From assembly GCA_000165425.1 (NCBI GenBank), contig CT868039.1:1-64000 (forward strand): a DNA stretch of 64,000 nucleotides, written 5' to 3'. Numbering within the stretch: the stretch's first letter is position 1; the number at the start of each line of letters is the position of its first letter. The DNA comes from Paramecium tetraurelia (taxonomy: Eukaryota). The position numbers and the translations under genes are program-made. The notes under the pieces were generated by a model, which was not told where the DNA came from, searched no databases, and saw only the letters and a list, made by a program, of their open reading frames with translations. Shown piece after piece: positions 20,180 through 49,380 of this stretch.

Positions 20180-22320
20180 ATGCAAGATTAGCAATTCGCT
20201 AATCTACTAACCTAAAACACCAAGATGATGATGATGATTGACATTATTTCCAGTAAATGCCCTAACAAAACACAGTTCATTTAGTCAAGCAATACATTCG
20301 TATAAGCATTCACTACCTATTCCATATTATATTTAAAAGTCTTTTAGGGTAAATTCTTACTAATCGAAAGATTCTTCTCAATCGTGGAAATGGTATGTTC
20401 AACAACTCTTTTTTGAATATCAAATGATATCATATAGTTGGTAACCGAAAGTGTAAATAATTTGACGTAAAAAATATAGGTATTTTATAAGAGAAAAGAA
20501 AATTATTTTTTATGGCAAAAATGAGATCAATATAATATATAAAATCCAGTTCAATTTATGACTATTACAAAAATCATGATTCCTAATTATTTAAAAATAA
20601 ATAAATTAATTATATAAATACATCGAGATTATGTAGTTCAAATCAGACTCATTTGATAGTGAATTAACGGAGTATCTCCAAATAGAACAGGAATTTGAAA
20701 TTAAATAGTTGTTTAAACAACTGAAAGTTTAAAATTAATAGTTGCCGAATAAAAAGTCTAAAAAAATTAAGAAGTTGAAACTAAACATTCAAACGAATTC
20801 AATTATGTAAAGAAGAAATGTAAACGTACAATAAATTTGATATAATTTGTATATAAACTTCTCTATTCTATTTATTAGTGATATCAGTATGATTTTATTA
20901 TTCCTCTCCCCCTCTTAATTGTTACTTGATTTCCTTATCATTACTAATAGATAAGCAAAATTATTTGTTTCTATTGAAAGCTGAATAAATTTATCGATTG
21001 TTGTTCATTTAAATTAACTCAATCATTATATATATATTATGATTCCTGATTAGATGAATTAGTGATTCAAAATATATATATCTTAGTGGAATTTATAGTT
21101 ATAACTAGACAGCTTGCTTCTACATTTTGAAATATTGTTGTATATTTAATTCAATTACAGTTTTATTTTAGACATAATTCGTATAATCCAACAATATAAT
21201 ATAAACGCATTTTAAAAAGTCTATTTATAATATAAACTTCATATATTTCTCTTTTTTATTTCATAACAACTAATAATAAGCTAGAAATGTAAAGTAAAAT
21301 GTTCTAAATATCTAATGAAGAATAGGAAATACTCCTATTTCTTGATTTTAAAAATGAATAATTAAATGAGAAATAATTTTACTGGACAATTTATTTTTTT
21401 TGTTGTTATTCACTTCAATTCTTATTTTTATGTTCCCTTATTGTAACTATGAAGCCTTTTATAAGAGAATAACTCTTTCTCTTAATAAGATTTGTACATT
21501 ATCTATATGTACTTGAGAGCACTATTTTATTTATTTAGAAATCAATATATTTTAATTTACAGTATTATGTTTAATATAAAATATTTGAGTATAAAGATTT
21601 TGGCAAGTTATAGTATATGAAATCAAAAGCAAATGATAATTATTATATTTAAAAAGAATTTAAATGAATAAGAAATAAATTTGTAAAGAAAAACAAGTCA
21701 ATTTTGGAATTAAATGAGGAATACTAATTGTAGATCGAACTTTATTTAATAATATATTTTTAAAGAAATAATATATGTTCAAAAAAAAGCAGTAAGCAAA
21801 TTTAATTAGAAAAATACTTGTTAAGTTGTGCCAAATAAAAGGATATAATCGAATTGACTTCTCAATTTGATCTCTAATAAGAAAAAGAAAACTTGTTATA
21901 GGGAAATCTTATGTAGATATATGAAATGAGAGTAATTTGCAAATTTACGAACTACAGAGTTTATATGTATATTAAAATGATTACATTTTATATAAACAGA
22001 AATACTTAGCAGAAAGGAAAACTACTTCATAAATGAATAGCTCATTAGATAAGTTATTATCAAATCTTAATTCCACTTTTAATGAGTAATATTCTTGTTA
22101 GAAATAATTATTTACCATTTATATTAAATGTCTCACAAGAAATCAAAATAATTCCATTATATTCTAATAAAGTTGAAGGCTATTTTTAAATATTAACACT
22201 CCACTCTCTCTATTTAATAGATGGCTCTTCAATAAATTACCTAACTCAATTTATTGATATAGAAAAACATTAAAAATGAATTTAATTAGGTATTATTGTA
22301 TATCAATATTATAAATGTAT
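20180..22320 (+). pseudogene. Degenerate membrane-protein-like gene ('gene X'), copy 1
   Basis: Coding-like stretches (MIDIISSKCPNKTQFIQSSNT; EEQEILLFLDF..FYWTIYFFCCYSLQFLFLCSL) interrupted by TGAs and frame changes; boundaries approximate. Confidence 0.5.
20527..21638. repeat. Near-identical inverted-repeat tract A; partner 48109-49163
   Basis: Reverse complement matches base by base apart from scattered substitutions and three short indels. Confidence 0.95.
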
Positions 22321-22344
22321 ATAATGAATGGAAAAACCTTCAAC

Positions 22345-24609
22345 TCAGATTGTTTCTACTTGCAAAGGCTAAATTCTGGCAGTTGAAACGGATTTCTAAT
22401 TAATCTAATTTTACCATACTTATTAAAATTCCTTTTCAAGTTCTCTCAACAATTTCACCTTGAGAGCATCGTAAAATTTTGCTTACCTTGAAAATTTATG
22501 CAAGTGCAATCCCTCAATTAATTATTATTCGTCTACTTCCTAATCTTCGTTAAGCCAAAGCGTTTCATCTATGAGTGGATTATATTTTGAGTATGAGCTG
22601 TTATGCTCAAGGCTCCTCATTAAGGTTCCATTCGTTGAATCTTATTTTGCCTCCTTTTTAAAAAACCAACTTGTCAATAAAAATAATGCTATCAACAGAA
22701 ACGAAAGAAAAATTGAAGTATATAATTAGTATCGAGTATAAATAGAAACTTTCAATACAGCATGAATAATTTGACTTGAACATATTTAAAGCATAATAGA
22801 AAAATATATATAAAGTTTAAACATGCGAAATTCTAATTTTAAATCTTTTCTAACTCCATAATTTATAAGCTAATACTTATCGATCCAGTAGATAATCATT
22901 AATTCTATGAGAGTAATAGGATAACATATGGGAAATATATACCCATAATAGAAGCATAAATGAATTAAAATATTTGTCTAAGTGTTTTTTACATTGAAAT
23001 TCATTTTTTTTTAAACTTTTTAGTTAGCTTAAAATTATGTTAAATTTGAATTTGTATTTAAATATTTGTAATATGTAATTTGGATTAATTGCCAAGCATA
23101 TTTATAGTCTATTATACTCAATATAATAGGAATGAGAGCATTATTCAATATTGTGCTAATAACATCCTCGCTAAATCCACCAGCACACCAAATTGGTGAT
23201 TTTCTTTCTTTTACATCCTGCTAATTAATACTATTGATAGGAGCAATTATATAATAAGTCAAATTTAGAGTTAATTAAAGAAATTCTGATAAAATTAAAA
23301 GAAGGTTATTATAAAAAATTTCTTACATCTCTTTGTGAAAACTTAAATGAAAGTGAAACATAATTTTTATGGTAATAAAAGAAATAGCTGCCACAGATAA
23401 GCTAATTAGTGAATTAATATTTGATTGATATCCACTTTTTCCTGAATTTGCTTAAATATATTCATTTTTTGTTTATATAATTTTTAAAAATGGAATCCAT
23501 AATGCGCTGGCTATTAAAAATTTGAGAAAAGCCTTTTTCAGATTTATTTATCGGAATTATTTTTTTGTTTTCCAATTAACATCTGAAGGCCTTGGACATT
23601 CAGTTATTGAACAATTTCTCCTGATTTTGTTTTTAAATTTAATGGCCTAATTCTTAAATTAATGACAAGAGGATTTTTACTTCATTAGAGAGAGTTAGAA
23701 AAACTCTACCAGTAAATTGCAAAAATAATTCTCGATTTTGCAGAACAAAAATCTAATCAACAGTTGTTCTTAGAACATCTTTCAAAGAGCTAAAATAATA
23801 AATTGAAAAATCAACATATCACTATTTTAAGCAAGAATTTCCCTTATTTTAACTTTTAATTAGTTTTCTAAATGCTCTTAATCATAAATTAAACAACAAT
23901 CAATAATGTTAAACTACACTCCTTCCCCTTCTAATTACTGGTTTACAAAATAATTCATTATTTGTTTTTTGCTAGATTCGCTTGGAAAAAATAAAATCTC
24001 CATAGAGCAGGATTTTATTGCTGATTCATCATCTATTTCGTGATCTAAATTATGATAATCATATTCAGAATATGATAGATATCGAATGAAGGCTAATTGG
24101 ATAAAAATAGAGACCAAGTATAAACTGTCCAAAAGGTTATCCTGAAAACTTATCATAAGACTGCATATTACTAGTCAGAATCCATCCTATTTAAAATTGA
24201 TAAATAATTGTTAAGAGTTTTTTTACAGGTTTCATTGTTCATGCATGAATATCCTTTTTAGTTCTAGATCAAATTGTATATTCCAGCAACAATACTATTA
24301 ATAGTCATTAAAATTACAAATTTATAGTTAGAAGGATAAATTAAATTTGTATCATCAAAAAGTATTTGTAGGCGGTACCATGTGCAATAAATATATCTAT
24401 ATCAGTTGAGAGGGGGTAATTTATAGTTTAAATGGGTTAATTGCAACAAGGACATCTTTTTGAATTTCTTAGAATTTCTTTATGAATAATTTAAGCTTTC
24501 TATTTGTAAATAATTTGTAATTTACTCGATGATTCTCTGCGAATTCGAAGTTTGGTGGTGATCTTAACAAATTTACTTACTCATTAAATTCTAATCCATT
24601 TGTATCCAT
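22345..24609 (-). CDS. Multi-pass membrane protein, OSCA/TMC-superfamily-like, paralog 1
   Basis: MDTNGLEF..PPNFEFAENH..CPCC N-terminus, CPRPSDVNW motif, many hydrophobic helices; introns at positions shared with 45021-47269. Confidence 0.78.
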
Positions 24610-24759
24610 TTTTATAATTAAATATTTTAAGTAAATAAAAAGTAGAGAAATAAATATATTCTATTCTACTAAATGAAAAGTTTAAGAACATTAATTTAAG
24701 ATTCAAGAAAATTGATCCAAACTTATAATGCATCACCTTATAAAGATTTTGGCTCAATA

Positions 24760-25814
24760 TCATATAAAAGCTTGAAAAAAAAAAAGGAAATGATAATTTT
24801 ACAATTGTGATAAATCTTCATCATTTAATAAATAGTATAAATAATTAACATCTTGAATTATTGATATTTGGATTACATTTAGAAATGGCGCATCAATTTT
24901 GGAAGAATTTGAACTTATTTTAATTCTTGAAATCAAACTTAATTAAGATTTATAAGAAATTAGAGAGATTAATTATTTTGATTAAAATTCGATTTTTAGA
25001 AATATAACATTTCGCTATAGAAGTAAGTTTGTTAATTCCTTGATCTACCCAATAAATTGATAAAAAGGCAATGGAGTTCCTAAATTGGTGATTTCAGGTG
25101 TCGGCAATCTGGTTTCTAGGAGTTGAGGAAAGCCTTAAAAAATTGAGTTAAGTTATAACTTCATTTTAGATAAAATTTAAATACTTAAAAAAGATCTCCT
25201 CCGATATTCCCCCAAATTGTCTTATGATTTGTATATGATAGATTTCCAATTATATTTGCAAATCCAACCGTGTATAATGTCATAATTAATAGTAATAATA
25301 ATAATAATACAATATTTAATCTGGCATAATGGGATTGCAATTTCATCATTATTTTTATTGAAATTTAAAACTATTTATTTAAAATCTTTTATCCTTTTTT
25401 CAGATCCTCTAATTATCCTTTCAAAACATTTAATTCTTTTTCATAATCTATCTTCTCCAATTTCTTTTTTATCTATAAAACCCGTTTTTTTTCTCTATTG
25501 TTCTCTCGAATTGTAGGATGGGAAAAATAGGCTTTTAGATTTTCTTTTGATTTTATTTTGAATCCATATTTATTGAGTTACCTCATTAGACTTTGGTAAT
25601 TATTGTGTTTGAAGTTGGAAGTCAGCAATTGTTTCTTAAATTCTTCAACATTCCAAATAACAAACCTATGTTCATCCCATCCTATAATCTAATAATTTTT
25701 AGGATTCTAATTTATACATGTAAATCATACATCAAGTATTTCATATAAATGCTTCAAAAATTTTTATCTTTGCTTCTCTCCATTAGTTTCGAATCCCTTC
25801 TGAAGTTCCTTCAT
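24760..25814 (-). CDS. HSF-type DNA-binding protein; possibly decaying (stop-loss and lost splice acceptor)
   Basis: KFLKHLYEILD|intron|..IIGWD..FVIWNVEEF..FKHNNYQSLMRQLNKYGF..FSHP followed by a coiled coil; the codon matching the paralog's stop reads CGA at 25012-25014. Confidence 0.8.
24897..25510. repeat. Near-identical inverted-repeat tract B; partner 44120-44735
   Basis: For example ggtgatttcaggtgtcggcaatctgg is the reverse complement of the sequence at ~44520-44545. Confidence 0.95.
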
Positions 25815-27144
25815 CAATTAGTAAATTATTTTAGGTATAGGAATTTTTTATTACAATCAATAGATAATATAAATATGTTTAAAAATCAAGATTATGGATC
25901 TAACAATTATTAGAATAATTCTCATTATTTTAATAAAGTGCAATTCATGTATGATTTAACGAATAATTGCTGATTTGCAATCAATACTAAAATTAGTAAT
26001 CCTTCTTTAATAATTCTGATTTCCTAGCTATTTACTAATGTATATTTGTCAAATTCTAATTATAAAATTCTTTTAATAAATAGTTTAAGATATTCTGATA
26101 TTCTTAAGTCCCTATGTTATTCATTAGGATTGAATATATGATTATATCGATTCTTCTTTTGAAAACTTTGAATATTCTAAAATATTTTAGGTAGCATCGT
26201 CCTATTTCTTCGAGCTGTTTGGTTGAAAATCTAATGAATTTACATACTTTTCTTTCTAAAGAATTATGTAGCCATTTATTGTATCCTACACTAAGTAAAT
26301 AATATTAGATTTAAAATAGATTTAGACTTAATCAAAAAGACCTGTTGGAACATCCAGTTGTCTAAAATAAATATTTGATCACTTAAGTCAAGTTGAATTT
26401 ATCACTCTATGGTTATATTGAAAATTCTATAATTTCATATTTTATTTTCTAAATTCTAAAATCTCAAAATCATTTTCATGCTGACCCTTACCTCAATATA
26501 TTAAATTGTTATAAAATTGGGTTTCCTTCTTAATTAATCAATTTCTAAATGATATTTCAAAATATAAGAGAAATCCACATATATATGCTTTATCTATCTT
26601 AACATAATATTCAAAAGTAACCAAAACCAAAAGTTGTAATATTTTTAATATGATTTAAAAAATAGAATAGTGTATATTTAAACCCAGTTGATATCTTTCT
26701 ACATATTTTATGTGTGGCTTTTATTCTTCTAGCACAAGTTGAACTATTAAAGGTATTTGGATTCTGAGGGGGTTTTTGAAAGTAAAATGGATATGACTGA
26801 ACTTTTAGAATTGATTTAGTTGATTTACTTGGGAAGGTTCAAAAAACACTATATAATTATGTAAATGAGTATTATTAATCATTCTTTGTTGCTACTACTA
26901 TGAATTGTTTCTAGATTGAGTCGCTTCTAACATTTTTAAGGATTAGAAAATTGATGAAAGTTTTCAACTTGCTTAATAAAGCTAAATAGTAGAAAAACTG
27001 AATCTCAGGTAACCTGATTATTATTTGAAAATACACCTGAACTAAGAGAGGTATGATAAGACCTGTTATTTACGATATTTGATTTAATAATAATACACAC
27101 ACATTTAGTCATTATTTCTTGGGTTTTCTCCAGAAATTAGAAAT

Positions 27145-27414
27145 TCAAAGTTGTTCTTCATCCGTCTCTTCATCTATCATATCCAACTAGGATTTAGTTG
27201 AGGCTTTGATATTATGAAAATGTTTTTATTTCAAACAAGAGAGGAGGAATTTCGATAGATCTTCAAGTTAAATACTATCATCAGCAGTGATTTCAAGTTT
27301 GAGAATTTAACCTTTTAAATATAGCTTCTCTTCCTTTGTTATTAGTTGCAGCTCAAAAAGCCCTTACAAAGTTTAAAAGCATTATTTATAAAAGGTCACG
27401 TTGATTAATTACAT
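27145..27414 (-). CDS. Short hypothetical protein (89 aa) or truncated pseudogene
   Basis: MQLINVTFYKQCFQTL...EEKLYLKGQI...MIDEETDEEQL-TGA; coding-like sequence with more stops follows. Confidence 0.4.
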
Positions 27415-28355
27415 GATTGCAATTTAATTTTCAATTTATATATTAAATTAAAACTAGAAATTATTACGCCCATATTAGAGCGTTAAATTTGAGTAAATAA
27501 ACGGGTTCAAATGAATAAAACGATAACATTGATAATCGTAAATTAACCTCTCATAAATTCACTCAATATTAAATATTGATAAAAATGAAATCCACCATTA
27601 TTAAAATTAAAACATTTAACAGAAGTGCTTTATTTAATTATCAAGTATGAATATAATTATATTTTCTACAATATTGAGTCTGAATATTTGGATTTTGAAT
27701 TTCAATTCTTCTCCAAAATATATCAATTAATATACAATTTTTATATATATTACAATGTATTAATAATCTTAAACTTTTATTTACAATTTAATAGTTGGGA
27801 TACTTATTAAAAATGATGGTGTATCAATCAATCTAAATTTATTCTTAGTAGTTGTACTATTAAGAGTAATAAACTGGTACAATAATAATAAAACTATATG
27901 TAAATATTAAGAATAATTATATTTATCTTAATATATTTTGTAAATATTGATTTAAAAATTGAAGTTGTAATGTATCTTTTGAGATCGATACTTATTGTTG
28001 ATCAGCATCTGATCACATCAGACATCAAGGGTGAATAATAAAAGTTGACATTTAGATACTCCTATCTTTTGATTTTGTTCTTGTAGAATTATGTATGAAT
28101 CTCAATATAATGATATTTAGAACTCTGTAAGCAGAACTTGAGACTTTTATTTTTGAAACTTAAATATTATAATATATACTAACATAGATTGTAATAAATC
28201 ATAAAATTAGTTGATTTCTTTGATAGAGGATATTGAGAGGTCAATATTAGTGAAAACCTCGATTTTATTATTTATATTTGTTATTTTAATGGAGTGCTTA
28301 TAAAGAAGTTAATTAAATGGGTTTGATTGATTGAATATTAAATTTATCAAATTAT

Positions 28356-30002
28356 ATGAGAAAGAAATTCACTTTGCAGTTTTCGCATCCGACAATAGAA
28401 CAGGCTTATTAAAAAGATAGGTTATTGAAATATTTGTGGATGAAGAAAATACTGGCAATATTAATCCTGTTGTTTTCGATAGTAGGGTTGATTAGTTCCT
28501 TATTTTATGAAAAATAAGAGATTATGTATTGGGAGGTAGGTTTCACAAGTTACAGCATAATTTTGATAATCATCTCTTTCAAGGGATCTCCAGAAAAAGT
28601 GAAGGCTATATTTCAATTTACAAACATACTCTTGTGTATTCTCTAGGTACGAGCTAATTATTACTCAACTCCTCAGTGTATTTACTTGAGTGGATAAAAC
28701 ATTATGATTTTCAATATGATAATGTTCTACTTTTCAAGTATCTAGGAAGCACCTATTTAATTAATTTTCTTTCTCGTTTCAAGATGTGTGATAACTGGAT
28801 TAGTGAATGAGATGTTTATGGGACAAGATCTGATATCAATAATATTGACAACACTTTGTATACTAATTTTTATATATCATAATGATTAAATTCAAAGAGA
28901 GCATTTCCTATTGCAATTCTCGGATAAATAATGGGGTATTAATATTATTTAATTACAGAATAAACTTTGCCAATAATTATTTAAAGTCCGTTCGTCATGT
29001 TTACATTCGATGAAGAAAGATTGAACTTTAATTTGAAAATTGCCAATGATATGTCTGAAATATGTTGGGATAGTGAAAAAGCACCCTCTGAAAATTTAAG
29101 ATACTTTCTGAGATCCTTCAAAATGGGAAACGACAATTTAGAATAATATCTCGTCACGAGAAGCAGGACTTGCAGCGATTATAAGAAGATTTATTAATTC
29201 CAATTAAGAATTCAAAGAAATGAATAAATCTACGGAACCAAGAAATTCGTTATTAGATTTTCAGATTTCTACTTGCGAGAACAAGTGTTCCTGATCGTCT
29301 TTGATCAACACGAGCAACAAATAAGAGTCTTGGAGAAAGTCAAGACCGCTTTAATCTAGGGTATCAATTAACACTAAAATTTAACAATCAATTTCTTGTA
29401 AAAACAATAGCAATTACTCTAAAATCTGATTGTATCTAGTAATTCCATCAGCACTATTTATAAAATGAAGATTCATTGCATGTATTTCATAGGAAAATAT
29501 ACTCAATGCAATAGTTTTTAGGAAATCGAACAATAAATAATATAAATTAATCTTACTGATATGATCAAAGGATTGATACACATTTATTGTATGGCGTATA
29601 AAACCATATAAATTGAGTTTTCAAGTAGCACCTTTGAGGATGTATATGTTTTTAGTAATGAACAACTTTTGAATATATTTTTAGTCATCATATTTTAGAC
29701 ACTTGTTCGGATATGTTAAAATGGTAAAACAGTGTTCATCCACATTAATGAGGCAGATAAATAATAAGATTTGGAACTGATTAAGATTAGTGTGCTGTTT
29801 AATAAGTCAGAGGAACTCAAATAGAAATTAGTATATAACTAACTATTCTACAAATTACAAGTAAGATTAAGTCCAAAGGTGGATATTCTATCTCATGATA
29901 ATGGTAATCATCTATGAATATTGACTAGCATGCCATTTTGAAATTTATAAGGATTTAAATTTGTTGAATGCAATCCGAATGTTGGAGGAAGATATATCCT
30001 GA
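28356..30002 (+). CDS. Multi-pass membrane protein with a cytoplasmic tail (ciliate-expanded family, possibly degenerate His-kinase-like)
   Basis: Intact frame MRKKFTLQFSHPTIEQAYQK...MLEEDIS-TGA with two introns; several N-terminal hydrophobic helices. Confidence 0.82.
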
Positions 30003-30039
30003 CTCGATCCTTGGCTATTTAATTTATGTTTACTCAATC

Positions 30040-31170
30040 TTTATAGACAAGAAATAAATATTAATATCATAATCATCTAAATTTATTGCCAAACAAGACC
30101 TTGTCCAGTCTTGTAACAGATCATCTACTGCAGACAGTTTTCCTCTGACTCAAGACTAACAACAAATCTTTATCTTATTTATTTGAATTTAATTTAGAAA
30201 TGCTTTATGACCAACCATTACTAAATGTTATTTCAGTTAAAGTTAATTTGAATAATTTTGCCTATTCTTGAACCAGGAGTGAGCGTAATTATCAAAGATA
30301 TTTGCCCTTTCTTTTGGGTGATTAACAAATATCAGACTCAAAAGATTTATCAATTCTTTAGAGATTGATTTTTTTGATAAACCTTAATTATATTAAATGA
30401 TATTTCTATAGGTTTCAGAAGGAATAGTTCCATCGAAAGGGAGTCTCCCAAAACTAGTCCATATATTATGCATCCAACTGCCCAGACATCTTAAGAGGGT
30501 GAGACGCCTCTAAATAAAGAGGAGAACTTTAGGGGCCAGATAAGATAGCGTATCTACAACACTTCTGTTGATATTTAGTGTCCAGTATAGGTTGAAATAC
30601 CGAAGTCAATAATTTAAATCTAATTTTAAATATTAAAAACTATTTCTTTAGAAGAAGGAGATGTTTAGCATGATATTTTCTAACTTCAAATCATAATGGG
30701 CAATATTATTTTCATGACAATAAGCTATTGCATCAACTATCTATTTCGAATGTAGTTTAGCATCTCCTTCAGGTAGTTTTGCGATGATAACATATACTTT
30801 ATTATATACAATTAGCATAGTTGAGGAGTAATCCACCTTTCAAGTATTCCATAATCATTTCAATCTCAATTTGATTCTATGTTACATAACTTTAATGTAA
30901 TTTAACAATGTTTTTAGGATCAAATGCTTTCATAATTAATTATTCTTATGGAACTCCATCCATTTCCCACCCTGACCATGATTATTAATTAATTATTTTA
31001 AAGGCTGTTAATTCCTTTGTGACTTTATGCCTTCCAAGTAATACTATCCCTTGGCCTCTTTCTCCTATTTTATTGATGATATACCCAAAAATTATAGCTT
31101 ACACTTTCACTCTAATTTAACTTACTTTATCACATCACCTTCAGATAATATTTGGTTTAATATCTTCATT
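30040..31170 (-). pseudogene. Decayed CAMK/SNF1-like kinase
   Basis: Altered motifs GERGQG, AFK, HYDLKLEN, IDFG and LSYLAPK; frame changes and damaged splice sites. Confidence 0.75.
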
Positions 31171-31509
31171 ACTCAAGTTCTACATAAAGTTTAGTATCGT
31201 TTTTGATGTTTATATACAATTTTAGGAATGCTCATCTATTTAATTATTCATATCAAAAATTCAATATTTTCTGCATCTTGTTTTAATTTCCTATTTATGG
31301 AATTATAAAATCAGTCTTTCTCTTAAATCAGGAAATTAGTAAGTCTGTCTAATTAATTTTGTTTCGGTCCTCTTTCTGTATCTTAGCGAGTCAGTTAAGT
31401 GTATGAGGTTTTGTAATACTGAAATTAATTTATTATATTATATTTTATGATATTCAGATGAAATGTTTATTAAAATTTTATAATTATAATCAATTATATT
31501 CTTGAAATT

Positions 31510-33050: not shown

Positions 33051-33170
33051 TAGACTTTCTAAATGTTGCTATCTAAAAGTTTGTGTAAATTTATTCATTG
33101 TTTTATTAATATCATAATTACATTCATAATGAAATAATAATATAATTAAATGATCAATTCAAATATTCTA

Positions 33171-33296: not shown

Positions 33297-33395
33297 AGTT
33301 AATCAAAAAATCTGCGAATCTTTGTTAGGATTAATAAAATTAATTCTCATTTAGAAATAAATAAAATTAAATATATTAAAATAAATAATATCTAA

Positions 33396-36064: not shown

Positions 36065-36107
36065 TTATTGCATTTTAGACTGTGTTTTAATTACAATTAT
36101 TATTTTA

Positions 36108-36533: not shown

Positions 36534-36949
36534 CCAAACACACATATGATTCAAAAATATGAATGATCCATCCCATTATTTTTCTATCAAAAAAATACTA
36601 TTCACCATTTTATATTTTAAAATATACAATAATATCTACAACACCCTTTAAGAATTCAAATATTTTCGAGTCTTCTTTATTTTTATTGTGTGAAAAAAGT
36701 TTTAAAATCTATTTCGATATCTCATACCTATATCTTGGATAGTCTTACTTAAATTTGATATACTTTCTAATCAGTGTTTGTATATGACCCTAACAAGTTG
36801 ATTTTATCTTCAAATTCACATCATCTATATAAGATGACTTGATCATTACAAAAGGGATTTATTGTTATTATTGTATAATCATTATGATCTCATTTTATGT
36901 TTCTATGGTATTATTTTATTTGATTATCATTGAAAATACCCTTGTAGAC

Positions 36950-38528: not shown

Positions 38529-38890
38529 TACTGAATCATATATTAACTAATTTATATTAATTATAAACAATTCAAGATTTTTAAGTTAGTAATTCTACAG
38601 TATTTTTCGTTATTATAATTAGAAAAACTAGGTGAATATTCATTATGTGAAGTTAATCAGAGATAATTATTAAATTTGTTGAGTGGATTGCATCAACTCA
38701 CATTTTGAATACTTTTCTTGGAAATAATTCAAATTATAATCTCTTTTTAGAATTAATAATACATGATAATCTATATTTAAAAAATGCAATTGATACACTA
38801 CGCTTACCCATAAATAAGTTTCATTTCTTTCTCTCCATTTGATGTGATGTAAAATTATAAGAACTTAAGATGTAATTAAATTAATATATT

Positions 38891-39130
38891 ATGAATTAAA
38901 ATAAATGTTAATCTGATTCTGGAGGGACTAAAACTAAAGTCCCTGAGGAAGATCATTTTCTACTTGTTATGAACTAAGTCTTGGAAAGACACAAGTCAAT
39001 TGCAGCTAAAAACAATGAAAGTTAACTACTTCAAAATGCTCTTAAGGCTTTATAATAAGAATTAAATGAAGCAGAATCTAAGAATCCTGGATCTGCTAAG
39101 TAAATACTAGATTCCATTTTCAATAATTGA
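38891..39130 (+). CDS. Small hypothetical protein (79 aa)
   Basis: MNQNKCQSDSGG...AKQILDSIFNN-TGA. Confidence 0.6.
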
Positions 39131-39944
39131 TTATTAGAATATTAAATATCAGAATCACTCTACTTTTTGGAATTTACACCATAATGTTCTTAAACTTTTT
39201 TTTACATCTTTAGTATATGTAATCAATTTCAAGAATAGTATATGCTGATCGAGAATTTCAGATTAAAACTTCTATAATTTATGACCGATTATAGACCTAG
39301 AGATAGTTGACATGAGTCAATGTACATTTCTTTTGTAATTGAAAAACTACCATTTGTATTCTTTTTAAGTAGCATTACCTCTCTTCATTTACTTTCATTT
39401 CAATAATTTATTTTTGCAGTTGCCATCTAATATTCGTATTATGGTAATTTGCATTATATTATCATAATTAAGTTTCTTTGTAAATCACCTTATTCTCTTT
39501 ATACATTGTTTCATAATAAACTTCATAATGACTTTAAAGTATAAATTTACACCTGAATTATATAAATATATTTATTAATCATCTACTCTATAAGATTAAT
39601 CTAACAGTAGATTTGTTCACTAAATAGAAATTTTGAATTATATGATTCTGATAATCTAATTTCAATCATGAGGTTGCTCACTTCTGCATTTAACAATAAC
39701 AGCAGTTCTTACCAAACCTTAATAACCCAGATAATATATGATTTCTTTTAACTTGTTCTCTCTTTATAATTAAAATTAGTATTATTTTTCTCTTCTTCAT
39801 TTTGCCCTGTGAACCATATTATTTTCTTCGTTAACATAATTTGTTCTCCTCTCCTTTTGTTCTGTCAAACGTATAATTCAACTCCCATTCAAAATCGATT
39901 GTTTAATATATTATTTAATAAGATAGACACAAGGCCAAAAAAAA

Positions 39945-40017
39945 AGCCAATTGGGGGAATCGAACCCCCGACCCTTTGCTTACGAGGCAAATGCTCTAAC
40001 CACTGAGCTAAACCGGC
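39945..40017 (-). tRNA. tRNA-Thr(CGT)
   Basis: GCCGGTTTAGCTCAGTGGTTAGAGC..TTTGC-CT-CGT-AA-GCAAA..GGTTCGATTCC..AATTGGCT cloverleaf followed by an oligo-T terminator. Confidence 0.96.
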
Positions 40018-40079
40018 ATCGTTAAATACTACATTTATTTATTATATAAATCACAATTCATCGTGCATCTTCTTCACAT

Positions 40080-40637
40080 ATTAAATAAATTTATGCTCAA
40101 ATTGCATAGCTGCAAAATTCAACTGAGTCTCACTGATTGGCTTATAAGTACTTACTCCATTCTCCAAAAGATCAATAAATCTCTCTTATTCACCTTCGTA
40201 ATCTTCTGCTACGAAAGCTATTTTCAAAGTAGTCCCTAATGAATCATCCATATACTCGCTTACCTTTCTTTACTTCAGGTTTTACAGTCAAAACAACACT
40301 CTTATATTAATCTTCATTGATTATGATTTAAGGAACAAAGTTCTAGAGACTTAATCCGACTGCATTTCCATTCATTCCAAATTACAAAAAGAAATCAGTC
40401 TCAGGAAATAATTCCTTCAAATCTATTACATTAGTATTCAGCTTTACTTTTGGCCTTAGATCTTTCATGATAGATCACAAATTAATTATATTTCTCTGAA
40501 TAACACAAAACTCCATCGAATTCTTTGTAATATCCATCCAATACAGTAGCTACTTAAACCTTCACTTTCTGTAATCCTGCTTCCTTTTAATCGCAATAGC
40601 CAAAAATGAATAATGCAAACAACACTATTAAACTCAT
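40080..40637 (-). pseudogene. Decayed secreted or membrane protein gene
   Basis: Signal-peptide-like start MSLIVLFALFIFGYC, then in-frame TGAs after about 56 codons. Confidence 0.45.
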
Positions 40638-41227
40638 TTTTATTAATCAAATTTTTCCATTAAATTTATTCTTAAATATTATTATCTCTACACGTAAGCA
40701 TGATTCCAATTTCTTGATTTAATTTAATTTTTTCATTATTCCCACCCCAGAACTCTGAAGTTCAACTGATTAATATATTAATTAGCCTGTTTGATCCAGT
40801 ATTCAAAAAAGAATAAATAAAGAAAATAGATAAATTTAATCAACTTTTATATTATTTCCACTCATTAAATTTTATAATATTTTAATTTAATTGGAGTATC
40901 AACATTCCTTAGAATGTGTATATCATTTTTTAATAAAGTATTAAACTTCTTCCATAAATTTTATATCTAATAGTATTATTATTTGTAAGGAGAAACCAAA
41001 AAAGAAAAGATATGCAATATATATCCTAGATAATCAGAAATTTTAATTTTGCCTTGAAGAAATTGTTAAAAAAATAAATTCAGTAAGATTATAAAATTAT
41101 TATTTATGTTTAACAGAGTTGTTATAAAAAATTTAGATTATTCCTTATAAACTTAATTAGATGCAGGAACTCAAATCATATCAAAAGATATTCTATAATA
41201 TCATATGTCATAAATATTAATTTATAA

Positions 41228-42725
41228 TCAAATTAATTAGTCTATCTATTTTTTATTTTTCCCAGAAAACGGTATATACGGGTTTATTTCAAAAGACATT
41301 TCAATTGCTAGAATATTGAATTATAATTACCATATTTAGTTACTTAGGTTAAAATTACAAATCTACTGAGAGATTCTTAATGAAGTTCAAAAAATGAAAG
41401 AACAACAGAAGAATTAAAATGCCCACTAACCACTAACTAAATCGTATCTTCGTCTAATTTAGAGTACCTAAATTTAATCATATAGGTATTTGTATTAGAA
41501 AATATCTTAAACAATACTAAACTAAAAATATCTGAATTTGTTTTCAAGTTTATTGTGTTTTTTATATTGATCTATACCATTAAGTCTGGAAAATATTTGG
41601 CTTGCTTTGAAATTATATGACAAAGATTAATTTCTTATACTGTTTATTCCCAGCTATTTTATAAGTTATGATATATTTCGATTAACCGAATCCGTTTCAT
41701 AAACGTAATATAATGTTATTTTTATTTTAGTTTTTTCTTCAAACTCTTTAATAATTAAACAAAGTATTAAAAAAAAACTGGGCTTTCTATTGTTGAGGAT
41801 GTATTTTATATCCTTAATTTGGGTTTATGAAAAATTAATAAAATAGTTGGCTAGTTTGCGAAAAAGATCGAAAACTCTAATTTTATTAATTCCCTTTATT
41901 ATTTAACCATGATTTCTTTTTTAAAAAGATCAATTCTGTCTTATTGATGTTGTTTCATCTAATCGTATAGGTAGTTGTTGAGTGATTTCTTTTAGTGCTG
42001 AGCTTCTTTTAAAAAATTTTGAATATCTTCCTTATCTTTAAAGCCATTTGAGAAGTTGTGTGCCATAAAATACTCGAACTAAAATGAACTCTCATTGAAG
42101 TTTAACATGATATATGATTACTTATGAATCAACTACTCTAATATTCTTTCCCATTATCTATCTTTCTAAATTAACATAAATTGTGCTCTTATTGCCTCAT
42201 TGTATTTGTACACAAAAAACATTTGACAAATAGATATGAAAACAAGCTTCCTATGGGGTATAAGGTCAAGGATTTAGTTTAATTCAATATGAAAATAATT
42301 CTGATAATCGTAATTGATATTGTCTGAAATAATGCTTCTGGAAATTCAGTTCCTATAGTTATGAGAAAACAAGCTCCCATTTAGTTTAAACCTTTCAAAT
42401 GTGAAGTCGCTGCATCACTGTCTTCATCATATAGATAAAAAAAAATTGTCAATATATGATTTGAAAGCACTGATAGGATTCTCAAACTGATATAGTGTTT
42501 GTTTAAAAAAATGTCCACAAAAATTATGAATAACAGCATTATTAGGTTTTGATAAAATCGCATTAACTCACCATTAAGCACATAGGTTAAGCATCTGAAA
42601 AAAAAAATAATCATGTAACCTTTTGCAAGCAGATTAAAATGAGTAATTCTAATGTGCTACAGAGATTGAGACTAATAAAGGGCTTCCACTTTTTTGTCGT
42701 AGAAGAACAAAGTAAATTTATTCAT
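41228..42725 (-). CDS. Multi-pass membrane protein, distant paralog of 28356-30002; frameshift near 42250
   Basis: MNKFTLFFYDKKVEALYQ; AQFMLIQKDRQWERIL; shares the C-terminal phase-1 intron (G|CA) with the paralog. Confidence 0.72.
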
Positions 42726-43964
42726 CTTAATAAAAAATATAGAAATTTTCAATTTTGATACCTTAATCAGTTAATAAAGAGTAAAGAAATGATTAAGATA
42801 AATGAATTGTTGAACAACAATATGATTAATTATAACACGTGTTTGGAAATTCTTAAGAATTTCAGAACAGAAATGGTATTAAAGACCCAGACTGAAATAA
42901 AATTAAACCTCTTTTTAATTGTCAAATTTTAATATTTCCAGATTACTCAAAATTATGACTTACTTAATTAACTTGAATTTTACATATGCAAAATAATAGC
43001 AATATTCAGAATTGTTTTTAAATCCAAAAATACACCATCAACTTCTCATAATAACAGATCTGAGCAAACAGGAATTGTATAACCCATTTGATAAATTATG
43101 ACAAATGATATTAAAATTCAAATATATAAAAATATGGATGTTTCAACAATCTTAGATAAAAATAGGAGTATTTAATTATTTTGTTTTTTAGATTTGAGCC
43201 ATAGATTTGATTTACTTTCGATTGATGAGATAGTGATCTTATTTTTACTATTAAGACTGATCTTTCTTTGACTTCTGATACTCTTAAGAATATGCATCTG
43301 AAATGATACTTTTTTGAGTTATCTTTAAGCAACTTGATTTTATTTTTCATCTAGATATCTGAATCTTGTTTCCCATGTTATGATTAACTTATGAAATGTT
43401 ATATTAATATCAGAGCTAGACTGGTATATAGCGAAGCATTATTCTGTGCCAATCCTTTTTGCTCTCAAATCTTGAATTTTAAATATCGCCTTCTTGAGAA
43501 TTTTATGAGTATAAAATTGAATTATTTATTCAAATAACTAATGGCAATTTTGTATGAAGACAGGTAAACCTTTGAAGAAGATAGAGTGAAAGGATAAAAA
43601 CTGTGAGTTATGTTATAATTTACCTTTGGCGAATCTTTCTTCTATTCGATTCAATCATAGTCAAATTATTATGGTAATGCCAAATCTAATTCTAAGTTAT
43701 TTTATTATGGCAATTTTTATGAATTAGTGAAAGAAGGATAGGGTTATGAGTTCTAATCATCCAATTAGCTGTCTTTCAGAATCTCTTAGATTATCATAAA
43801 GATTATTGAATTTTTATTTAAGTAGAAGATCAAAGAATAGCATATCTTAGTTTTGTGCAGCATCAAATAATTCAATTTTAAATTTGTTGATGATTTTGAT
43901 AATTTTGATAATTTTGAGGATTATATTTTATGAATATGGATGATTAGAATCTATTTGAGGGTGA

Positions 43965-44620
43965 ATGGAATGGATAATCCTTAGAGTTTTTGGGTAATTT
44001 ATTAAAAATATAGGTACAATGTTGTATAGTGATATACTAGCCTAAAATAGCACGAATATGATAGATATTATTTCCACTAAATGCCCTAACCAAAAATAAT
44101 TGATTGAGTCAAGCAATACTATTCAAGAGAACAATAGAGAAAAAAAACAGGTTTTATAGATAAAATAGAAATTGGAGAAGATAGATTATGAAAAAGAAAT
44201 AAATTATTTGAAAGGATAATTAGATGACCTGAAAAAGATAAAAGATTTTAAATACATAGTTTTAACTTTCAATAAAAATAATGATGAAATTTCAATCCCA
44301 TTATGCCAGATTGAATATGGTATTATTATTATTATTACTATTAATTAGTTGACATTATACACGGTTGGATTTGCAAATATATTTGGAAATCTATTATATA
44401 CAAATCATAAGACAATTTGGGGGAATATCGGAGGAGATCTTTTTTAAGTATTTAAATTTTATCTAAAATGAAGTTATAACTTAACTCAATTTTTTAAGGC
44501 TTTCCTCAACTCCTAGAAACCAGATTGCCGACACCTGAAATCACCAATTTAGGAACTCCATTGCCTTTTTATCAATTTATTGGGTAGATCAAGGAATTTA
44601 CAAACTTACTTCTATAGTGA
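43965..44620 (+). pseudogene. Chimeric ORF joining the gene-X N-terminus to an HSF C-terminus without the DNA-binding domain
   Basis: MEWIILR..MIDIISTKCPNQKQLIESSNT joined in frame to IQENNREKKQVLQIK..; TGA at 44618-44620. Confidence 0.6.
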
Positions 44621-45020
44621 AATGTTATATTTCTAAAAATCAAATTTTAATCAAAATAATTAATCTTCCTAATTTCTTATAAATCTTAATTAAGTTTGAT
44701 TTCAAGAATTAAAACAAGTTCAAATTCTTCCAAAAATTAATAATCATAATCCAAATATTAATAATTCAAGAAGTTTGATTATTTATACTATTTATTTAAT
44801 GATTAATTAGCATTACTATATTATAATTATTCTTTTAATTACCATTTCGTTTTTTTTTAGCCTTTTATTCAAATGAAAAAATCTCTCTAATGATTTTTCC
44901 ATTCATCCTAAATTTTAATCCTTCTTAATTAATTTATACTATTACTTTTAACTGAGTAGAATAGAAAATATCGATTTTCATATTTTAATATTTACAAACA
45001 GAAATATTTATTAATAAAAA

Positions 45021-47269
45021 ATGGATACTAATAAATCAGAATTCATTGACGAAGAAAATTTGTTAAAAGCACCCCCAAATTTCTTATTAGCTGAGAAACA
45101 TTGCGTAAATAAATATTATTTACAAACAGAAAGCTTAAATCATTCATTAAGAAGTGATAAGTAACTCATAAAGATGTCCTTGTTGCAATTTACATGTTGA
45201 AACTATAAAGTATTCCCTCTTAACAGATATAAATACTTTTGTTTAGGAGGGTACCGCATACAAATACCTTTTGTTTATAAAAAATGTATTTATTCTTCTT
45301 AGTATAAATTTGTAACTCTCTAATAATTATTAATAGTATTGTATTTGGAATATATAATTTTATTTAGAACTTAAAAGGAGATTCATGCATTATGAATGAA
45401 ACTTGCAAATAGAATTTGAACAATTATTTATCAATTTTAAATAGGATGGATTCTTACTTGTAATTTAAGATTTTATGATAGTTTTGAAGATAATATTTTG
45501 GATATTTTATATTTGACTTCCACTGCTATACAATTAGCCTTCCTAAGATATATATCATATTCTAAAGATGATGATTATAATATAGATAGAGAACTTGATA
45601 GCGAGTTTACAATATCAAAATGCTCGTTAAAGATCAAAAATTTGCCTAGTAATTGCAACTAAAAAGAAGGTTTGAGTCTATTTGTAAATAATTTATACAA
45701 AAGTGACAATGATCCATTAAACATTATTGATTCTTGTTTAATTTATGATGAAGAATATTTAGAAAATTAATTAAAATTTAAAATTAAAGAAATTCTAACT
45801 CAAAATAATGATAGGTTTGTTTTCAATTTATTATTATTAGCTCATTGAGAGATGTTATAGAGAGAACTGTTGATTTGAATTATGTTTTGCAAAATCGAGA
45901 ATTTTTTTTGAAATATGCTGATAGAGGATTTATAACTTTTGCTAGTGAAGTAATAATAATTTTATCATTTTTAGAGAGAGGCTATCAAATTTAAGGATTT
46001 ACTAAATAGAAAAAGTGTGATTGATTGTCCAAGGCCTTCTGATGAAAAATGGATTACTAAGAAATAAAAGGTTAATTTAATACTTGAAACTATCCTATTT
46101 ATAATAGAATGGGTTTGCTTTTATCTAATCTACTTATTCTAAAATATAAAAGATGAATATACTGAAACAAATTCTGGATATTAATTAAATAGTAAAACAC
46201 TTTTGAGCTTTTCTATGCCTATTTTGTAAAAGATTAGTATTACCTTACAATAAAGAACATATTAAAAAGTACTTTAATATAGTTAATTTACTCAATTGCC
46301 TTAATATTATTTTGAAATTTTTTAATTGCTCATAAGTTCATTCAATGTTGTCGCATTTCCTCTTTTAATTTTTGAATAACGAGGCTAATAAGAAAGTAAA
46401 TTAAAATTTTGGGGTGATGGCGGTTTCAATGAAGATATTATTTTTATCATAGTGATTAGTTCAATTTCATTTATGGGATTAAGTATAATAGATTAAGAAT
46501 ATGCTTGGAAACTATTAAAAACTTTTTATTACAAATATTTAAATCGAAATTCAACTTTAACATAATTTGAAGCTAACTAATTAATCTAAAGAAAATTGGA
46601 CTTTAATGCTAAATATATTGGATTACTTCATTTAATTTTTTCATGCTCCTATTATGGGTATATTTATCCCATCTGCTACCCTATAACTCTCATAGCTCTA
46701 TTTATTATCTTTTGGTAAGAAAAATACTAACTTATTAATTATGGAGTTTAGGAGGAATTCAAATTCAAAAAAGACTCATTAAAATTGCCTATATTACTTC
46801 TCTTTATTTTTTAAGTTTCATCTCCTCAATTAATTCATAATGTATTTAAAATATCACCAACTACTCGCCCATTTTTTTATATATTCCTTTTTTTGATTTT
46901 TTTACTCATTTACTTGTTTTTTTTTTCTGATTTGATTTTTATCAATTAATCTTCAGATTATCAAACGGCCGAAGCCTTAATGAAAAGCCTTGAGCATAAC
47001 GATTTATACTCAAAATACAATCCTATAATAAATGAAACTCTTTGGCCTAACAAAGAGTATGAAAAAGTATGGAAATAATAAAATTTTAGGGATTACATTA
47101 ACATAAATTTTCAAGATAAGAGCGATATTACAACACTCTCAAGGTGAAATTGTTGAGAGAGCTTGAAAACGAATTTTAATAGGTAACGTAAAATTAGATT
47201 AATTAGAACTCCATTAAAAAAGTCAGCATATAACCTATTTAAGGTGAATAAATGGTAGTAGAAGAATGA
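45021..47269 (+). CDS. Multi-pass membrane protein, OSCA/TMC-superfamily-like, paralog 2
   Basis: MDTNKSEF..PPNFLLAEKH..CPCC; SLKIKNLP; CPRPSD; FWGDGGF; QFEANQL; FWQEKYQL; about 7 short introns. Confidence 0.8.
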
Positions 47270-47289
47270 AGATCTTAAAATTCATATAT

Positions 47290-49380
47290 ATTATAATATA
47301 AATTATTTTTCTAAATCCAATTATTTGTATTATATTTCTAATTTTAAATATAAAATATCATAGAACACTATTACAGTATACAAATCTATTAGGAGCACTT
47401 GAATATGCCATATTAGATAACTTAAATTCTATCAAATATTAATTTAGATACAAAAAAAGAAATAGAATCCATGAGATTAAGATGATTTTGAAGAAATACT
47501 ATCTAATTGATCACATTACAACAATAATAGGCAATACCAAATTGAAAAATATAAACATCCAAATAATTTATAGCTATCAAAATATAGGAGTACAATTCAA
47601 ATGTTAAAAAGAATTATTTTTATTTTTCGCTCAAGTTGGTTAATATTTATTCTAGTAGTTCCTTATTTATTCTAAGATAACTCGAACAAAATTTTAATCA
47701 TACTAAGGTTTTTATATAGATTTCAATTTATTTTCTTAATTCTTCTGAATTATACTCAGAAATAGTTTGCTTTAGGGTTCAAACTCAGGTTTTCTAAAAT
47801 TACTTCTCCTTTCATATGATCTACTTGATATTTTTTAAGAATAATTAATAATTTGCTATTTAAGACTATTTTCTTAACTTATTACAAGTTTTTAAAGATT
47901 ACCCTTCTCTTCTTTCTTACCTTATTATATTAAATGTGGATTTCTCAATTCCAAATATCAGTTATATTTAATTTCACAAAATATTCTAATTTTATTAGAT
48001 CTACTTATTGCTTTTGAATTTAAACTATTCTACTAAAAAAATACTTGTCTCACTCATCATAACTTTCAATCAACATTCATTTTTAATTCTATTATTATCT
48101 TTATCAAATATCATTTGCTTTTGATTTCATATACTATAGCTTGCCAAAATCTTTATAATAAACATAATACTGTAAATTAGAATATATTGATTTCTAAATA
48201 TATAAAATAGTGCTCTCAAGTACATATAGATAATGTACAAATCTTATTTAGAGAAAGACTTATTCTCTTATAAAAGGCTTCATAGTTACAAATAAGGGAA
48301 CATAAAAACAAGAATTTAAGTGAATAACAACAAAAAAAATAAATTGTCCAGTAAAATTATTTCTCATTTAATTATTCATTTTCAAAATCAAGAAATAGGA
48401 GTATTTCCTATTCTTTATTAGATATTTAGAACATTTTACTTTACATTTCTAGCTTATTATTAGTTGTTATGAAATAAAAAAGAGAAATATATGTAAATAG
48501 ACTTTTTAAATGCGTTTATATTATATTGTTGGATTATACGAATTAATATACAACAATATTTCAAAATGTAGAAGAAAGCTGTCTAGTTATAACTATAAAT
48601 TCCACTAAGATATACATATTTTGAATCACTAATTCATCTAATCAGGAATCATAATATATATATAATGGTTGAGTTAATTTAAATGAACAACAATCGATAA
48701 ATTTATTCAGCTTTCAATAGAAAAAAATAATTTTGCTTATCTATTAGTAATGATAAGGAATTCAAGTAACAATTAAGAAGAGGAGAGGAATAATAAAATC
48801 ATACTGATATCACTAATAAATAGAATAGAGAAGTTTATATACAAATTATATCAAATTTATTGTACGTTTACATTTCTTCTTTACATAATTGAATTCGTTT
48901 GAATGTTTAGTCTCAACTTCTTAATTTTTTTAGACTTTTTATTCGGCAACTACTAATTTTAAACTTTCAATTGTTTAAACAACTATTTAATTTCAAATTC
49001 CTGTTCTATTTGAAGATACTCCGTTAATTCACTATCAAATGAGTCTGATTTGAACTACATAATCTCGATGTATTTATATAATTAATTTATTTATTTTTAA
49101 ATAATTAGGAATCATGATTTTTGTAATAGTCATAAATTGACTGGATTTTATATATTATATTGAATTCTTATTTACAATAAAATAATTTTCTTTCCACTTA
49201 AAATATTTGTTTTTAACATCAAATCGTTTACACTTTCAATTACCATCTATATGATCCCATTCGATATTCAAAAAGAGTGTTTTAAACGTACCATTTCCTC
49301 GATTGAGAAAAATTTCTCTTTTTTGCAAGAATTTTACCTTTAAATACTATTAAATGTAAAATGGAAAAGGTAGCGATATC
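47290..49380 (-). pseudogene. Gene X remnant, copy 2 (inverted)
   Basis: Reverse-complement homology to ~20300-22320, clearest over 48109-49380. Confidence 0.5.

Follow-up and report, generated by a model that had tools for sequence, protein, structure and literature searches.

Two inverted arms in the 64,000-nucleotide window of Paramecium tetraurelia analysed here are, with high confidence from sequence comparison, an old inverted segmental duplicate under concerted evolution. The best overall explanation, which we consider probable, is that this duplicate is under ongoing ectopic recombination, with past flips of the DNA between its arms. A switch of derived mutations inside a heat-shock-factor (HSF) tract carries the argument for the flips.

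Geometry and origin of the arms

Self-BLAST returned two inverted pairs, 20310-21669 with 49376-48075 (90% identity) and 22338-25515 with 47264-44117 (75%). A preliminary description of the window had proposed inverted arms of about 5 kb lying 18.6 kb apart, and this is borne out by self-BLAST and by contigs across the junctions: arm 2 is a 5.35-kb copy of an X-channel-HSF cassette, 18.6 kb from the original. A third piece was overlooked there, namely a direct repeat (20202-20299 with 44032-44124, 79% identity) which has no further copy in the genome. The features are listed below, where C7 is the sister scaffold from the genome duplication.

20202..20299 (+): Y1, upstream region of the SPRY gene and donor of the direct-repeat piece; 79% identity to 44032-44124
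20310..20526 (+): w1, old outer part of arm 1 in the SPRY/X intergenic region; 24% diverged from 49164-49376, absent from C7
20527..21638 (+): tract X of arm 1, holding gene X, a conserved upstream motif and decayed DNA that has homology to C7; substitutions relative to arm 2, 2.0%
20631..20840 (+): gene X1, 69 aa, intact, function unassigned; 78% to the C7 copy at the amino acid level
21639..22344 (unstranded): spacer 1, where tract X ends; barely alignable with spacer 2 (1 of 60 shuffles reaches the score)
22345..24609 (-): O1, TMEM63/OSCA-anoctamin-like membrane protein, 704 aa; modelled with 6 introns, three acceptors being AAG or GAG
24610..24896 (unstranded): u1, upstream region of O1; 30% diverged from arm 2, many indels
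24897..25515 (-): HSF tract of arm 1, 3' two thirds of HSF-a
25012..25814 (-): HSF-a, gene model; PF00447 at E 2e-14
25317..25338 (unstranded): putative crossover interval, at which the derived mutations pass from arm 1 to arm 2
25516..44031 (unstranded): single-copy interval, 18.5 kb, collinear with C7 and oriented as there; the segment that a flip would invert
44032..44124 (+): Y2, direct copy of Y1 forming the insertion's left end, with a 4-base overlap at its joint to the HSF fragment
44117..44735 (+): HSF tract of arm 2, 5'-truncated; frameshift in the outer part, clean splice sites and stop in the inner part
45021..47269 (+): O2, second channel-like gene, 700 aa, 6 introns, intact
47270..48108 (+): spacer 2, probable decayed remnant of a second HSF gene (HSF-b), which is intact on C7
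48109..49163 (-): tract X of arm 2, holding gene X2 (49060-48851, intact); deletions of 29, 12 and 15 bases
49164..49376 (-): w2, old outer part of arm 2; right junction 49376/49377 adjoining a polo-like kinase gene

Column counts agree with the earlier account of two near-identical tracts and a diverged outer part of about 220 bp. Tract X has 21 substitutions in 1054 columns (2.0%) and 6 indels, the HSF tract has 22 in 617 (3.6%; inner part 8/394, outer part 14/223), and w1 and w2 differ in 50 of 211 columns (24%).

The preliminary description had also considered that the identical tracts might come from misassembly, which is not so. Words of arm 1 are present at 93-96% in 20 of the 24 listed sequencing runs. 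In all four of the independent runs used for contigs (4 of the 24) both arm-2 junctions are spanned, and 42800-44196 and 49111-49675 are each covered by single contigs without other letters. Positions 45425-48231 form a single contig in three of these runs and two overlapping pieces in the fourth. At sites differing between the tracts both alleles are present in the run contigs. Misassembly, collapse or invention of the arms themselves is therefore ruled out by run word content and junction-spanning contigs.

On C7 the insertion site is empty (62001 is followed by 62015), and there is no w and no channel gene. About a dozen target bases are missing at the insertion site, which has neither target-site duplication nor poly-A. 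The donor ends of the direct and inverted pieces are adjacent (20299/20310), and the 4-base overlap at the Y2/HSF joint has a chance of 0.035. That arm 2 is a lost genome-duplication copy moved from C7 is disfavoured, since Y2 shares with arm 1 bases missing from C7, and C7 is without w or channel.

Other candidates were rejected as well. C47 (sister of C358) as donor site of O2 has no channel remnant in 20 kb, and synteny of C91 or C358 with the window is limited to generic kinases and one shared gene. The 29-, 12- and 15-base deletions, inspected by eye, have no TA repeats at their bounds as excised IESs would. An open frame over w (20047-20526) has no Pfam match and no match outside the arms, and was not called a gene. 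An exact-pattern scan of metagenome contigs gave 0 matches.

Concerted evolution and the escape of the channel genes

A predicted protein of P. octaurelia (P0038), five accession steps from the polo kinase, has the same Y|HSF junction as tetraurelia. At the level of predicted proteins this shows that arm 2 predates the tetraurelia/octaurelia split. The HSF fragment of P. octaurelia differs from its own HSF-a at 0 of 67 residues and from tetraurelia at 6 of 67; the two tetraurelia arms differ from each other at 1 of 47 C-terminal residues and from octaurelia at 5-6 of 47. This comparison uses predicted proteins and accession order, not DNA, and covers the HSF tract only, tract X having data from one species. 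Because the octaurelia fragment equals its own HSF-a and not that of tetraurelia, the HSF tract has been homogenised independently in both species. The tracts, at 2.0% for X against 17-30% elsewhere in the arms, are younger than a duplication that is common to octaurelia. Old duplication followed by gene conversion, as proposed in the preliminary description, is thereby upheld, and for the HSF tract it is recurrent, the arms within each species being closer to each other. Interlocus gene conversion and concerted evolution of duplicates are described in PMC3924837 and PMC10195154.

The tracts stop where indels occur or homology is lost (at 21638, at 24897 and at the junction 25515). Homologous pairing of the two arms would begin in the slow-evolving genes X and HSF and would halt at indels and unalignable DNA, so that the fast-evolving channel genes may lie out of the reach of conversion.

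The greater likeness of the tracts had been read as the reverse of purifying selection, with decaying DNA more alike than working genes. The tracts in fact sit on slow-evolving genes and the channel pair evolves fast. Tract X is indeed partly decayed (that part aligns to C7 with a score reached by 0 of 60 shuffles), but both arms carry gene X as an intact ORF of 69 aa, and in arm 1 the HSF tract belongs to a full-length gene, of which it forms the 3' half. X1 and X2 differ by 1 residue, gene X is retained on three other scaffolds (C7, C646 and C89), and it matched no Pfam family. Spacer 2 scores 102 against HSF-b of C7 at the DNA level, compared with 52 +/- 7 when shuffled (0 of 60 shuffles reach the score), and gave no protein-level match.

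The description of heavily diverged and apparently intact membrane-protein genes between the tracts holds: O1 and O2 are both intact and 52% identical, with dS 0.62, dN 0.34 and dN/dS 0.55. The dS comparison used 16 of 48 segment pairs (those with dN/dS under 0.2; one pair of infinite dS was dropped) and gave a median of 0.98. Orthologues of O2 in P. pentaurelia and P. primaurelia are at 67%, and from this and the O1/O2 dS and dN the pair is far older than 2% divergence. In those two species the O2-type genes sit on other contigs, therefore the cassette moved once. Among 7 matches in P. octaurelia none is a full-length O1 or O2, a weak sign of absence. A chimeric origin of O1 from other lineages was rejected, with informative sites interleaved and trees unresolved.

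O1 and O2 are likely to fall, on model predictions, in the OSCA/TMEM63-anoctamin (TMEM16) superfamily. They share with it their language-model and predicted-fold neighbours, a cytosolic RRM-like domain and a length of about 700 aa, but are only 12-16% identical to solved members. Pfam RSN1_7TM and PHM7_cyt matched none of the 11 and 9 proteins scanned, and a PDB sequence search with the channel-like protein gave 0 matches. In a structure atlas the neighbours are anoctamin/PHM7_cyt clusters at 0.95-0.96 (TM 0.6-0.74). In a Foldseek search with our own O-protein model, of low confidence (pLDDT 46), the top 28 ranks listed are TMEM63/OSCA at TM of just 0.14-0.31.

Selection might instead shield both channels from conversion, as in the model of an opsin-type divergence peak after functional change (PMC3924837). 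We regard this as possible though doubtful, and it can coexist with recombination between the arms. Both genes have long remained intact, their identity drops to 24-33% over residues 301-430, and in the arm-2 copy of octaurelia only the first ~50 residues resemble O1 (5:2) and the rest resembles O2 (17:4), as if conversion had entered and stopped. Against it, the divergence is broad and gene-wide and not a narrow peak; dN/dS is 0.35-0.90 in all 7 windows, none above 1, and similar (0.45-0.52) against an unlinked paralogue; and the non-coding u and w have diverged as far as four-fold sites have.

Polarity switch and orientation of the interval

Derived mutations of the HSF tract, polarised against outgroups and taken in the phase of the assembly, are distributed between arm 1 and arm 2 as 7:1 in the inner part and 1:10 in the outer part (Fisher 0.0012; 1 of 2000 permutations). 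With C7 bases alone the ratios are 6:1 and 1:9 (P 0.004). A two-block model fits 17 of the 19 polarised events, 25364 and 25282 being the sites against the blocks. Six further tract sites were left out of the count, four not polarisable and two in the 3' UTR splitting 1:1. As assembled, HSF-a has lost its stop codon (25014) and its intron-2 acceptor (25283), giving a gene model of 334 aa compared with 241 in P. octaurelia, and the clean 3' half is carried by the truncated arm-2 copy. The flipped arrangement would put nearly all damage on the truncated copy. The switch, with a damaged full gene and a clean truncated copy, is therefore taken as the mark of a reciprocal exchange.

Most likely, judging from these sequences, the exchange consisted of a past inversion and re-inversion, or of one inversion and an assembly mis-join; at least one real inversion of the interval probably took place. 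Some events between the arms would be crossovers, inverting the interval. Its flip would postdate the species split; the copy linked at that time to the truncated end would have decayed, and a second exchange at 25317-25338 (real re-inversion or assembly mis-join) would have given the full HSF gene the decayed 3' half. The damage to HSF-a may be tolerated because C7 keeps an intact HSF-a.

As substrates for inversion by NAHR, the inverted repeats are 98% identical over 0.4 and 1.1 kb, with unique DNA between them and a longest identical run of 203 bp. Breakpoints of repeat-mediated inversions have been defined by exchange of contiguous paralogous variants (PMC3961182), and here, given the assembly's phase, at least three are exchanged by outgroup polarity.

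In the mis-join variant the living chromosome is inverted, with an intact HSF-a beside O2; this still requires one real inversion and belongs to the favoured explanation.

Conversion without any flip is unlikely. It would take two one-way conversions in opposite directions, brought together by meiotic recombination, or symmetric heteroduplex repair. In its favour, the assembly, C7 and P. octaurelia (the last judged by accession order) all have the ancestral orientation, conversion among Paramecium paralogues is frequent (PMC4199370), and the meiotic recombination rate is 420 cM/Mb (PMC13085455), which by our arithmetic is ~8 cM across the interval. Both tracts would however need ends within the same 21-60 bp, and among the rows shown no variant near the switch is common to both arms.

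A pure consensus swap in the assembly, with no inversion, is very unlikely. The flipped form does give a clean gene, the switch adjoins a TAA microsatellite, and phase is unreadable in the run contigs, in which 44312-44351 is masked: for 25283-25338 simulation gives 86 and 88 letters, and the observed 88, counted as alignment columns (cf. 48290/48309), fits both arrangements. Yet the variants are 6-30 bp apart, so any read phases them, matching errors would be needed in both arms, and the arm-1 haplotype from 25338 to 25426 is confirmed by contigs in 4 of 4 runs.

The swap of the preliminary description, in which the duplication is recent and a paralogous cassette has taken the place of its middle, is largely refuted: the equal 2.0% divergence of tract X and the inner HSF part (P = 1.0) and the O2-type genes on other contigs in P. 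pentaurelia and P. primaurelia would suit it, but arm 2 is older than the separation of the species, as old sequence is also present in Y, w and u, no closer donor lies among 23 protein and 6-7 DNA matches in the genome, and arm 2 of P. octaurelia is O2-type too. Equally far-fetched is a programmed or regulated macronuclear inversion switch; whether HSF-a is intact or read through would depend on orientation, but the arms are long decaying homology with no conserved short site at their ends to serve for crossover, they accumulate indels and a frameshift, the switch lies at one historical point, and no second orientation was seen.

The flipping raised as a speculation in the preliminary description thus has indirect support from the reciprocal switch of derived mutations, as a past homology-driven event and not as two orientations in the macronucleus or a regulated switch. 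No read or contig has the other orientation, and there is no strand-changing joint among those listed, although within a collapsed repeat contigs could not reveal one; nine contig joints with sides of 20-24 letters were taken as noise. That both orientations exist among living cells or copies of one macronucleus, as inversion isomers whose repeats are kept alive by conversion in two species, is rather improbable. If so, orientation would decide between a clean and a read-through 3' half of HSF-a.

Comparison with known systems

The polarity switch in the HSF tract is a new observation; conversion between Paramecium paralogues was already known. In literature titles and abstract openings, with subscription papers mostly outside this scope, inversion through local inverted repeats in Paramecium was not found, and a search on the gene identifiers of the locus, with most subscription papers and all supplements outside its scope, found no paper mentioning them. 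The locus provides a marker, at the level of single bases, for a crossover in the past. Either 18.6 kb of the reference lie in the wrong orientation, or the lineage carries a recombinant, damaged heat-shock-factor gene covered by a duplicate. Ectopic recombination in the germline and in the macronucleus could be measured and compared at this locus, which also illustrates why homogenisation persists in slow genes but not in a fast neighbour.

Twin-primed (5'-inverted) L1 insertions consist of a short direct piece and a long inverted piece. Arm 2 resembles them, and templated insertion with microhomology, in its direct and inverted pieces, adjacent donor ends and 4-base overlap. It differs from twin-primed L1 in lacking target-site duplication and poly-A, in keeping 6 introns and several genes, and in the dozen or so missing target bases. 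In Salmonella, tufA and tufB are inverted paralogues homogenised by homologous recombination, with occasional inversion. The tuf copies are whole, functional and selected to match, whereas here one HSF copy is truncated and the largest genes escaped.

The red/green opsins (PMC3924837), which lie ~24 kb from each other, are likewise paralogues in which sequence of low divergence surrounds a diverged functional part. Their peak is narrow and tied to known sites, whereas here divergence extends over the entire 2.3-kb gene and into its flanks. With interlocus conversion systems (PMC3924837, PMC4199370, PMC10195154) the arms share a closer likeness between paralogues than between orthologues, tracts some hundreds of bases long that stop at indels, and young patches in an old duplicate. 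Unlike the genome-duplication pairs described for Paramecium, this is a local inverted segmental duplicate with tracts of 0.6-1.1 kb, one of which has a reciprocal and not a one-way pattern. Human recurrent inversions by inverted repeats (PMC3961182; bioRxiv 10.1101/2021.12.20.472354) also have inverted repeats around unique DNA, exchange of contiguous variants, and inversion with re-inversion. Here the homology blocks are at most 203 bp identical, one orientation is seen and the exchange is deduced from outgroups, in a ciliate with separate germline and somatic nuclei.

Arms, inserted copy and sister contig

Both inverted arms (about 20300-25515 and 44117-49376) and their two near-identical tracts lie where the preliminary description had placed them; a short direct repeat, Y, had been overlooked. 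Misassembly was checked in independent data, and both arms are present there, as judged by the word content of sequencing runs and by junction-crossing contigs. Arm-1 words were found at 93-96% in 20 of the 24 listed runs, and both arm-2 junctions were crossed by single contigs without other letters in 4/4 runs examined. Between the arms, 21 of 1054 columns differ in the gene X tract (20527-21638 with 48109-49163), 8/394 in the inner and 14/223 in the outer HSF tract (24897-25515 with 44117-44735), 50/211 in the outer 220 bp and 79/264 upstream of the channel-like genes. Five of six indels in the gene X tract (21146-21588 versus 48160-48545) are losses in arm 2, and at the 29-base indel the arm-1 sequence aligns to C7, the sister contig; these indels suggest that arm 2 was the recipient, or decays faster.

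Genes were read with genetic code 6 and introns of 22-29 bases. Collinearity with C7, the sister contig left by the recent genome duplication, extends over the whole window. The median dS of 0.98 (16 of 48 segment pairs used) agrees with the value of 1.0 that PMC4199370 gives for this duplication. Because C7 joins the homologues of 44025 and 49377 within 14 bases, the segment between them would be an insertion, clean loss on C7 being less likely.

44032-49376: inserted segment, Y in direct orientation, then 20310-25515 inverted
20202-20299 and 44032-44124: Y, a 95-bp direct repeat absent from the rest of the genome

The donor ends of the two pieces are 10 bases apart, their joint has a 4-base overlap (chance 0.035), and no target duplication was found at the insertion. 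Twin priming gives a similar geometry of one direct and one inverted piece, but here introns are retained and poly-A is absent. Arm 2 may instead have arisen by templated repair insertion, or as a direct copy inverted afterwards. Spacer 2 (47270-48108) probably represents a second HSF gene that has decayed here but is retained on C7, and arm 2 would thus copy the whole old cassette. At the position of the window contig's channel gene, C7:37400-39450 (L025) carries a coiled-coil gene with a frameshift and a second HSF in tandem.

The genome-duplication sisters C56:67229-67842 (L038, on the window's contig) and C7:81005-81620 are 95.6% identical over 617 bases, reflecting either strong conservation or another conversion tract. 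Where the polo-like kinase gene begins (49700-49870), four runs show a second contig >90% alike, probably the C7 copy. The window contains a tRNA-Thr(cgt) between the arms (39945-40017), a tRNA-Arg(tct) (56225-56299) and a 150-base N gap (2855-3004). One of four runs (X11) has a 28-base TA-starting insertion at 43212, which in size and form resembles an internal eliminated sequence.

Genes of the cassette and their relatives

Both arms carry gene X as an intact ORF of 69 residues, 78% identical to the C7 copy. A motif of about 22 bases upstream of it (20535-20560, 49130-49155) is conserved on four paralogous scaffolds, with a one-base deletion in arm 2.

The channel-like genes O1 (arm 1, 704 aa) and O2 (arm 2, 700 aa) are both modelled intact with six introns in common. 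Sequence searches gave no match in Pfam or PDB; from the Atlas and from a structural model of low confidence they are tentatively assigned to the TMEM63/OSCA-anoctamin superfamily. They are 52% identical (dS 0.62, dN 0.34). At four-fold sites 24/79 differ, fewer than in genome-duplication pairs (478/1093; P 0.025) and compatible with the outer 220 bp (P 0.29). In the paralogue L032 (G000:C358:302900-305130) each of the six modelled introns is 24 or 27 bases long, hence divisible by three, and free of stops; left unspliced, the gene reads as a single open frame over about 740 codons.

In the tree, O2 clusters at full support with proteins of P. pentaurelia and P. primaurelia, while O1, the O2-type group and a third group form a three-way split without resolved order. 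By accession order and contig extent, the third group adjoins the SPRY gene in those species, i.e. the arm-1 position. By the same measure, their O2-type genes map to different contigs, and the stretch before the polo kinase leaves arm 2 little space or none; the O2-type cassette has therefore changed place once, either into this site or away from it. The arm-1-position proteins of the two species (P0002/P0005) are 68% identical, from 94% at the N-terminus to 47% around residues 351-430, and the O2-type pair P0004/P0008 about 98%. The P0002/P0005 divergence may mean a hypervariable locus, ancient alleles or, in part, gene-model error.

Homogenisation in two species

P0038, a predicted protein of P. 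octaurelia, is five accession steps away from the polo kinase; the full octaurelia HSF-a, on the same contig, lies five from SPRY. P0038 starts at the same Y-to-HSF junction and continues into the channel N-terminus. Over its HSF part it matches the HSF-a of octaurelia itself at 67/67 residues and differs from tetraurelia HSF at 6; the tetraurelia arms differ from each other at 1 of 47 C-terminal HSF residues, and from octaurelia at 5-6. Given the shared junction and the within-species match, arm 2 predates the split and has been overwritten independently in each species, on protein-level evidence for octaurelia. In octaurelia the copying apparently ran on into the channel gene, which is O1-like at 5/7 informative sites in its first stretch and O2-like at 17/21 thereafter.

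The preliminary description's proposal of an old duplication homogenised by conversion is thus borne out, and as a recurrent process; the structure is real, and that it is an old inverted segmental duplicate with recurrent conversion is very likely. With the mutation rate of PMC4199370, 2% divergence works out at some 4 x 10^8 divisions. An unlinked channel family member is 75% identical between tetraurelia and octaurelia, and SPRY and polo kinase 97-98%. The channel family is fast-evolving everywhere and the homogenised tracts sit on slow genes, which dissolves the supposed reversal of purifying selection. Selection against conversion of the channel genes is possible; against it, O1/O2 dN/dS is <1 in 7/7 windows.

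Polarity in the HSF tract and a probable past inversion

The arm-2 HSF copy is without the DNA-binding domain, so damage is expected throughout it; damage is concentrated in arm 2 in the outer HSF tract only. As phased in the assembly, and with polarity taken from C7 (at two sites from octaurelia residues), arm 2 carries the derived state in 10 of 11 events at 25338-25512, including a frameshift, and arm 1 in 7 of 8 at 25014-25317 (Fisher 0.0012; best split reached in 1/2000 permutations). C7 bases alone give 6:1 versus 1:9 (P 0.004). Six differences were excluded: polarity was lacking at two coding and two 3'-UTR sites, and a further two in the 3' UTR split 1:1. Among the arm-1 changes, the stop codon and the intron-2 acceptor are lost, hence the assembled HSF-a of 334 residues (241 in octaurelia); the arm-2 inner part has splicing and stop as in C7. 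Outward of 25338, contigs of four runs bear out the arm-1 haplotype.

Crossing-over between inverted arms flips the DNA that separates them. A reciprocal exchange at 25317-25338 would yield the polarity switch in a single step, and exchanged contiguous paralogous variants are described as an accepted mark of inversion breakpoints in PMC3961182. The assembly, C7 and octaurelia (from predicted proteins and accession order) all have the ancestral orientation, which would require either two crossovers, inversion and then return, or one crossover and a mis-joined assembly. The base-level sign in the HSF tract makes at least one past inversion fairly likely, so that the earlier idea of a flipping interval keeps this historical part; a second orientation was seen in no read. 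Conversion alone could also give the pattern, through two opposite conversions combined by meiotic recombination or through a symmetric heteroduplex, but the tract ends would then have to coincide. The suggested exchange of channel variants between arms is disfavoured, since the O2-type occupies arm 2 in both tetraurelia and octaurelia. A programmed switch, for which this locus gave no evidence, is highly improbable.

Recurrent homogenisation of duplicates is textbook behaviour as presented in PMC3924837, and the same homogenisation is known from PMC4199370 and PMC10195154. Compared with the usual conversion patch this locus is more informative, because data from a second species are at hand and a decisive test would be cheap.
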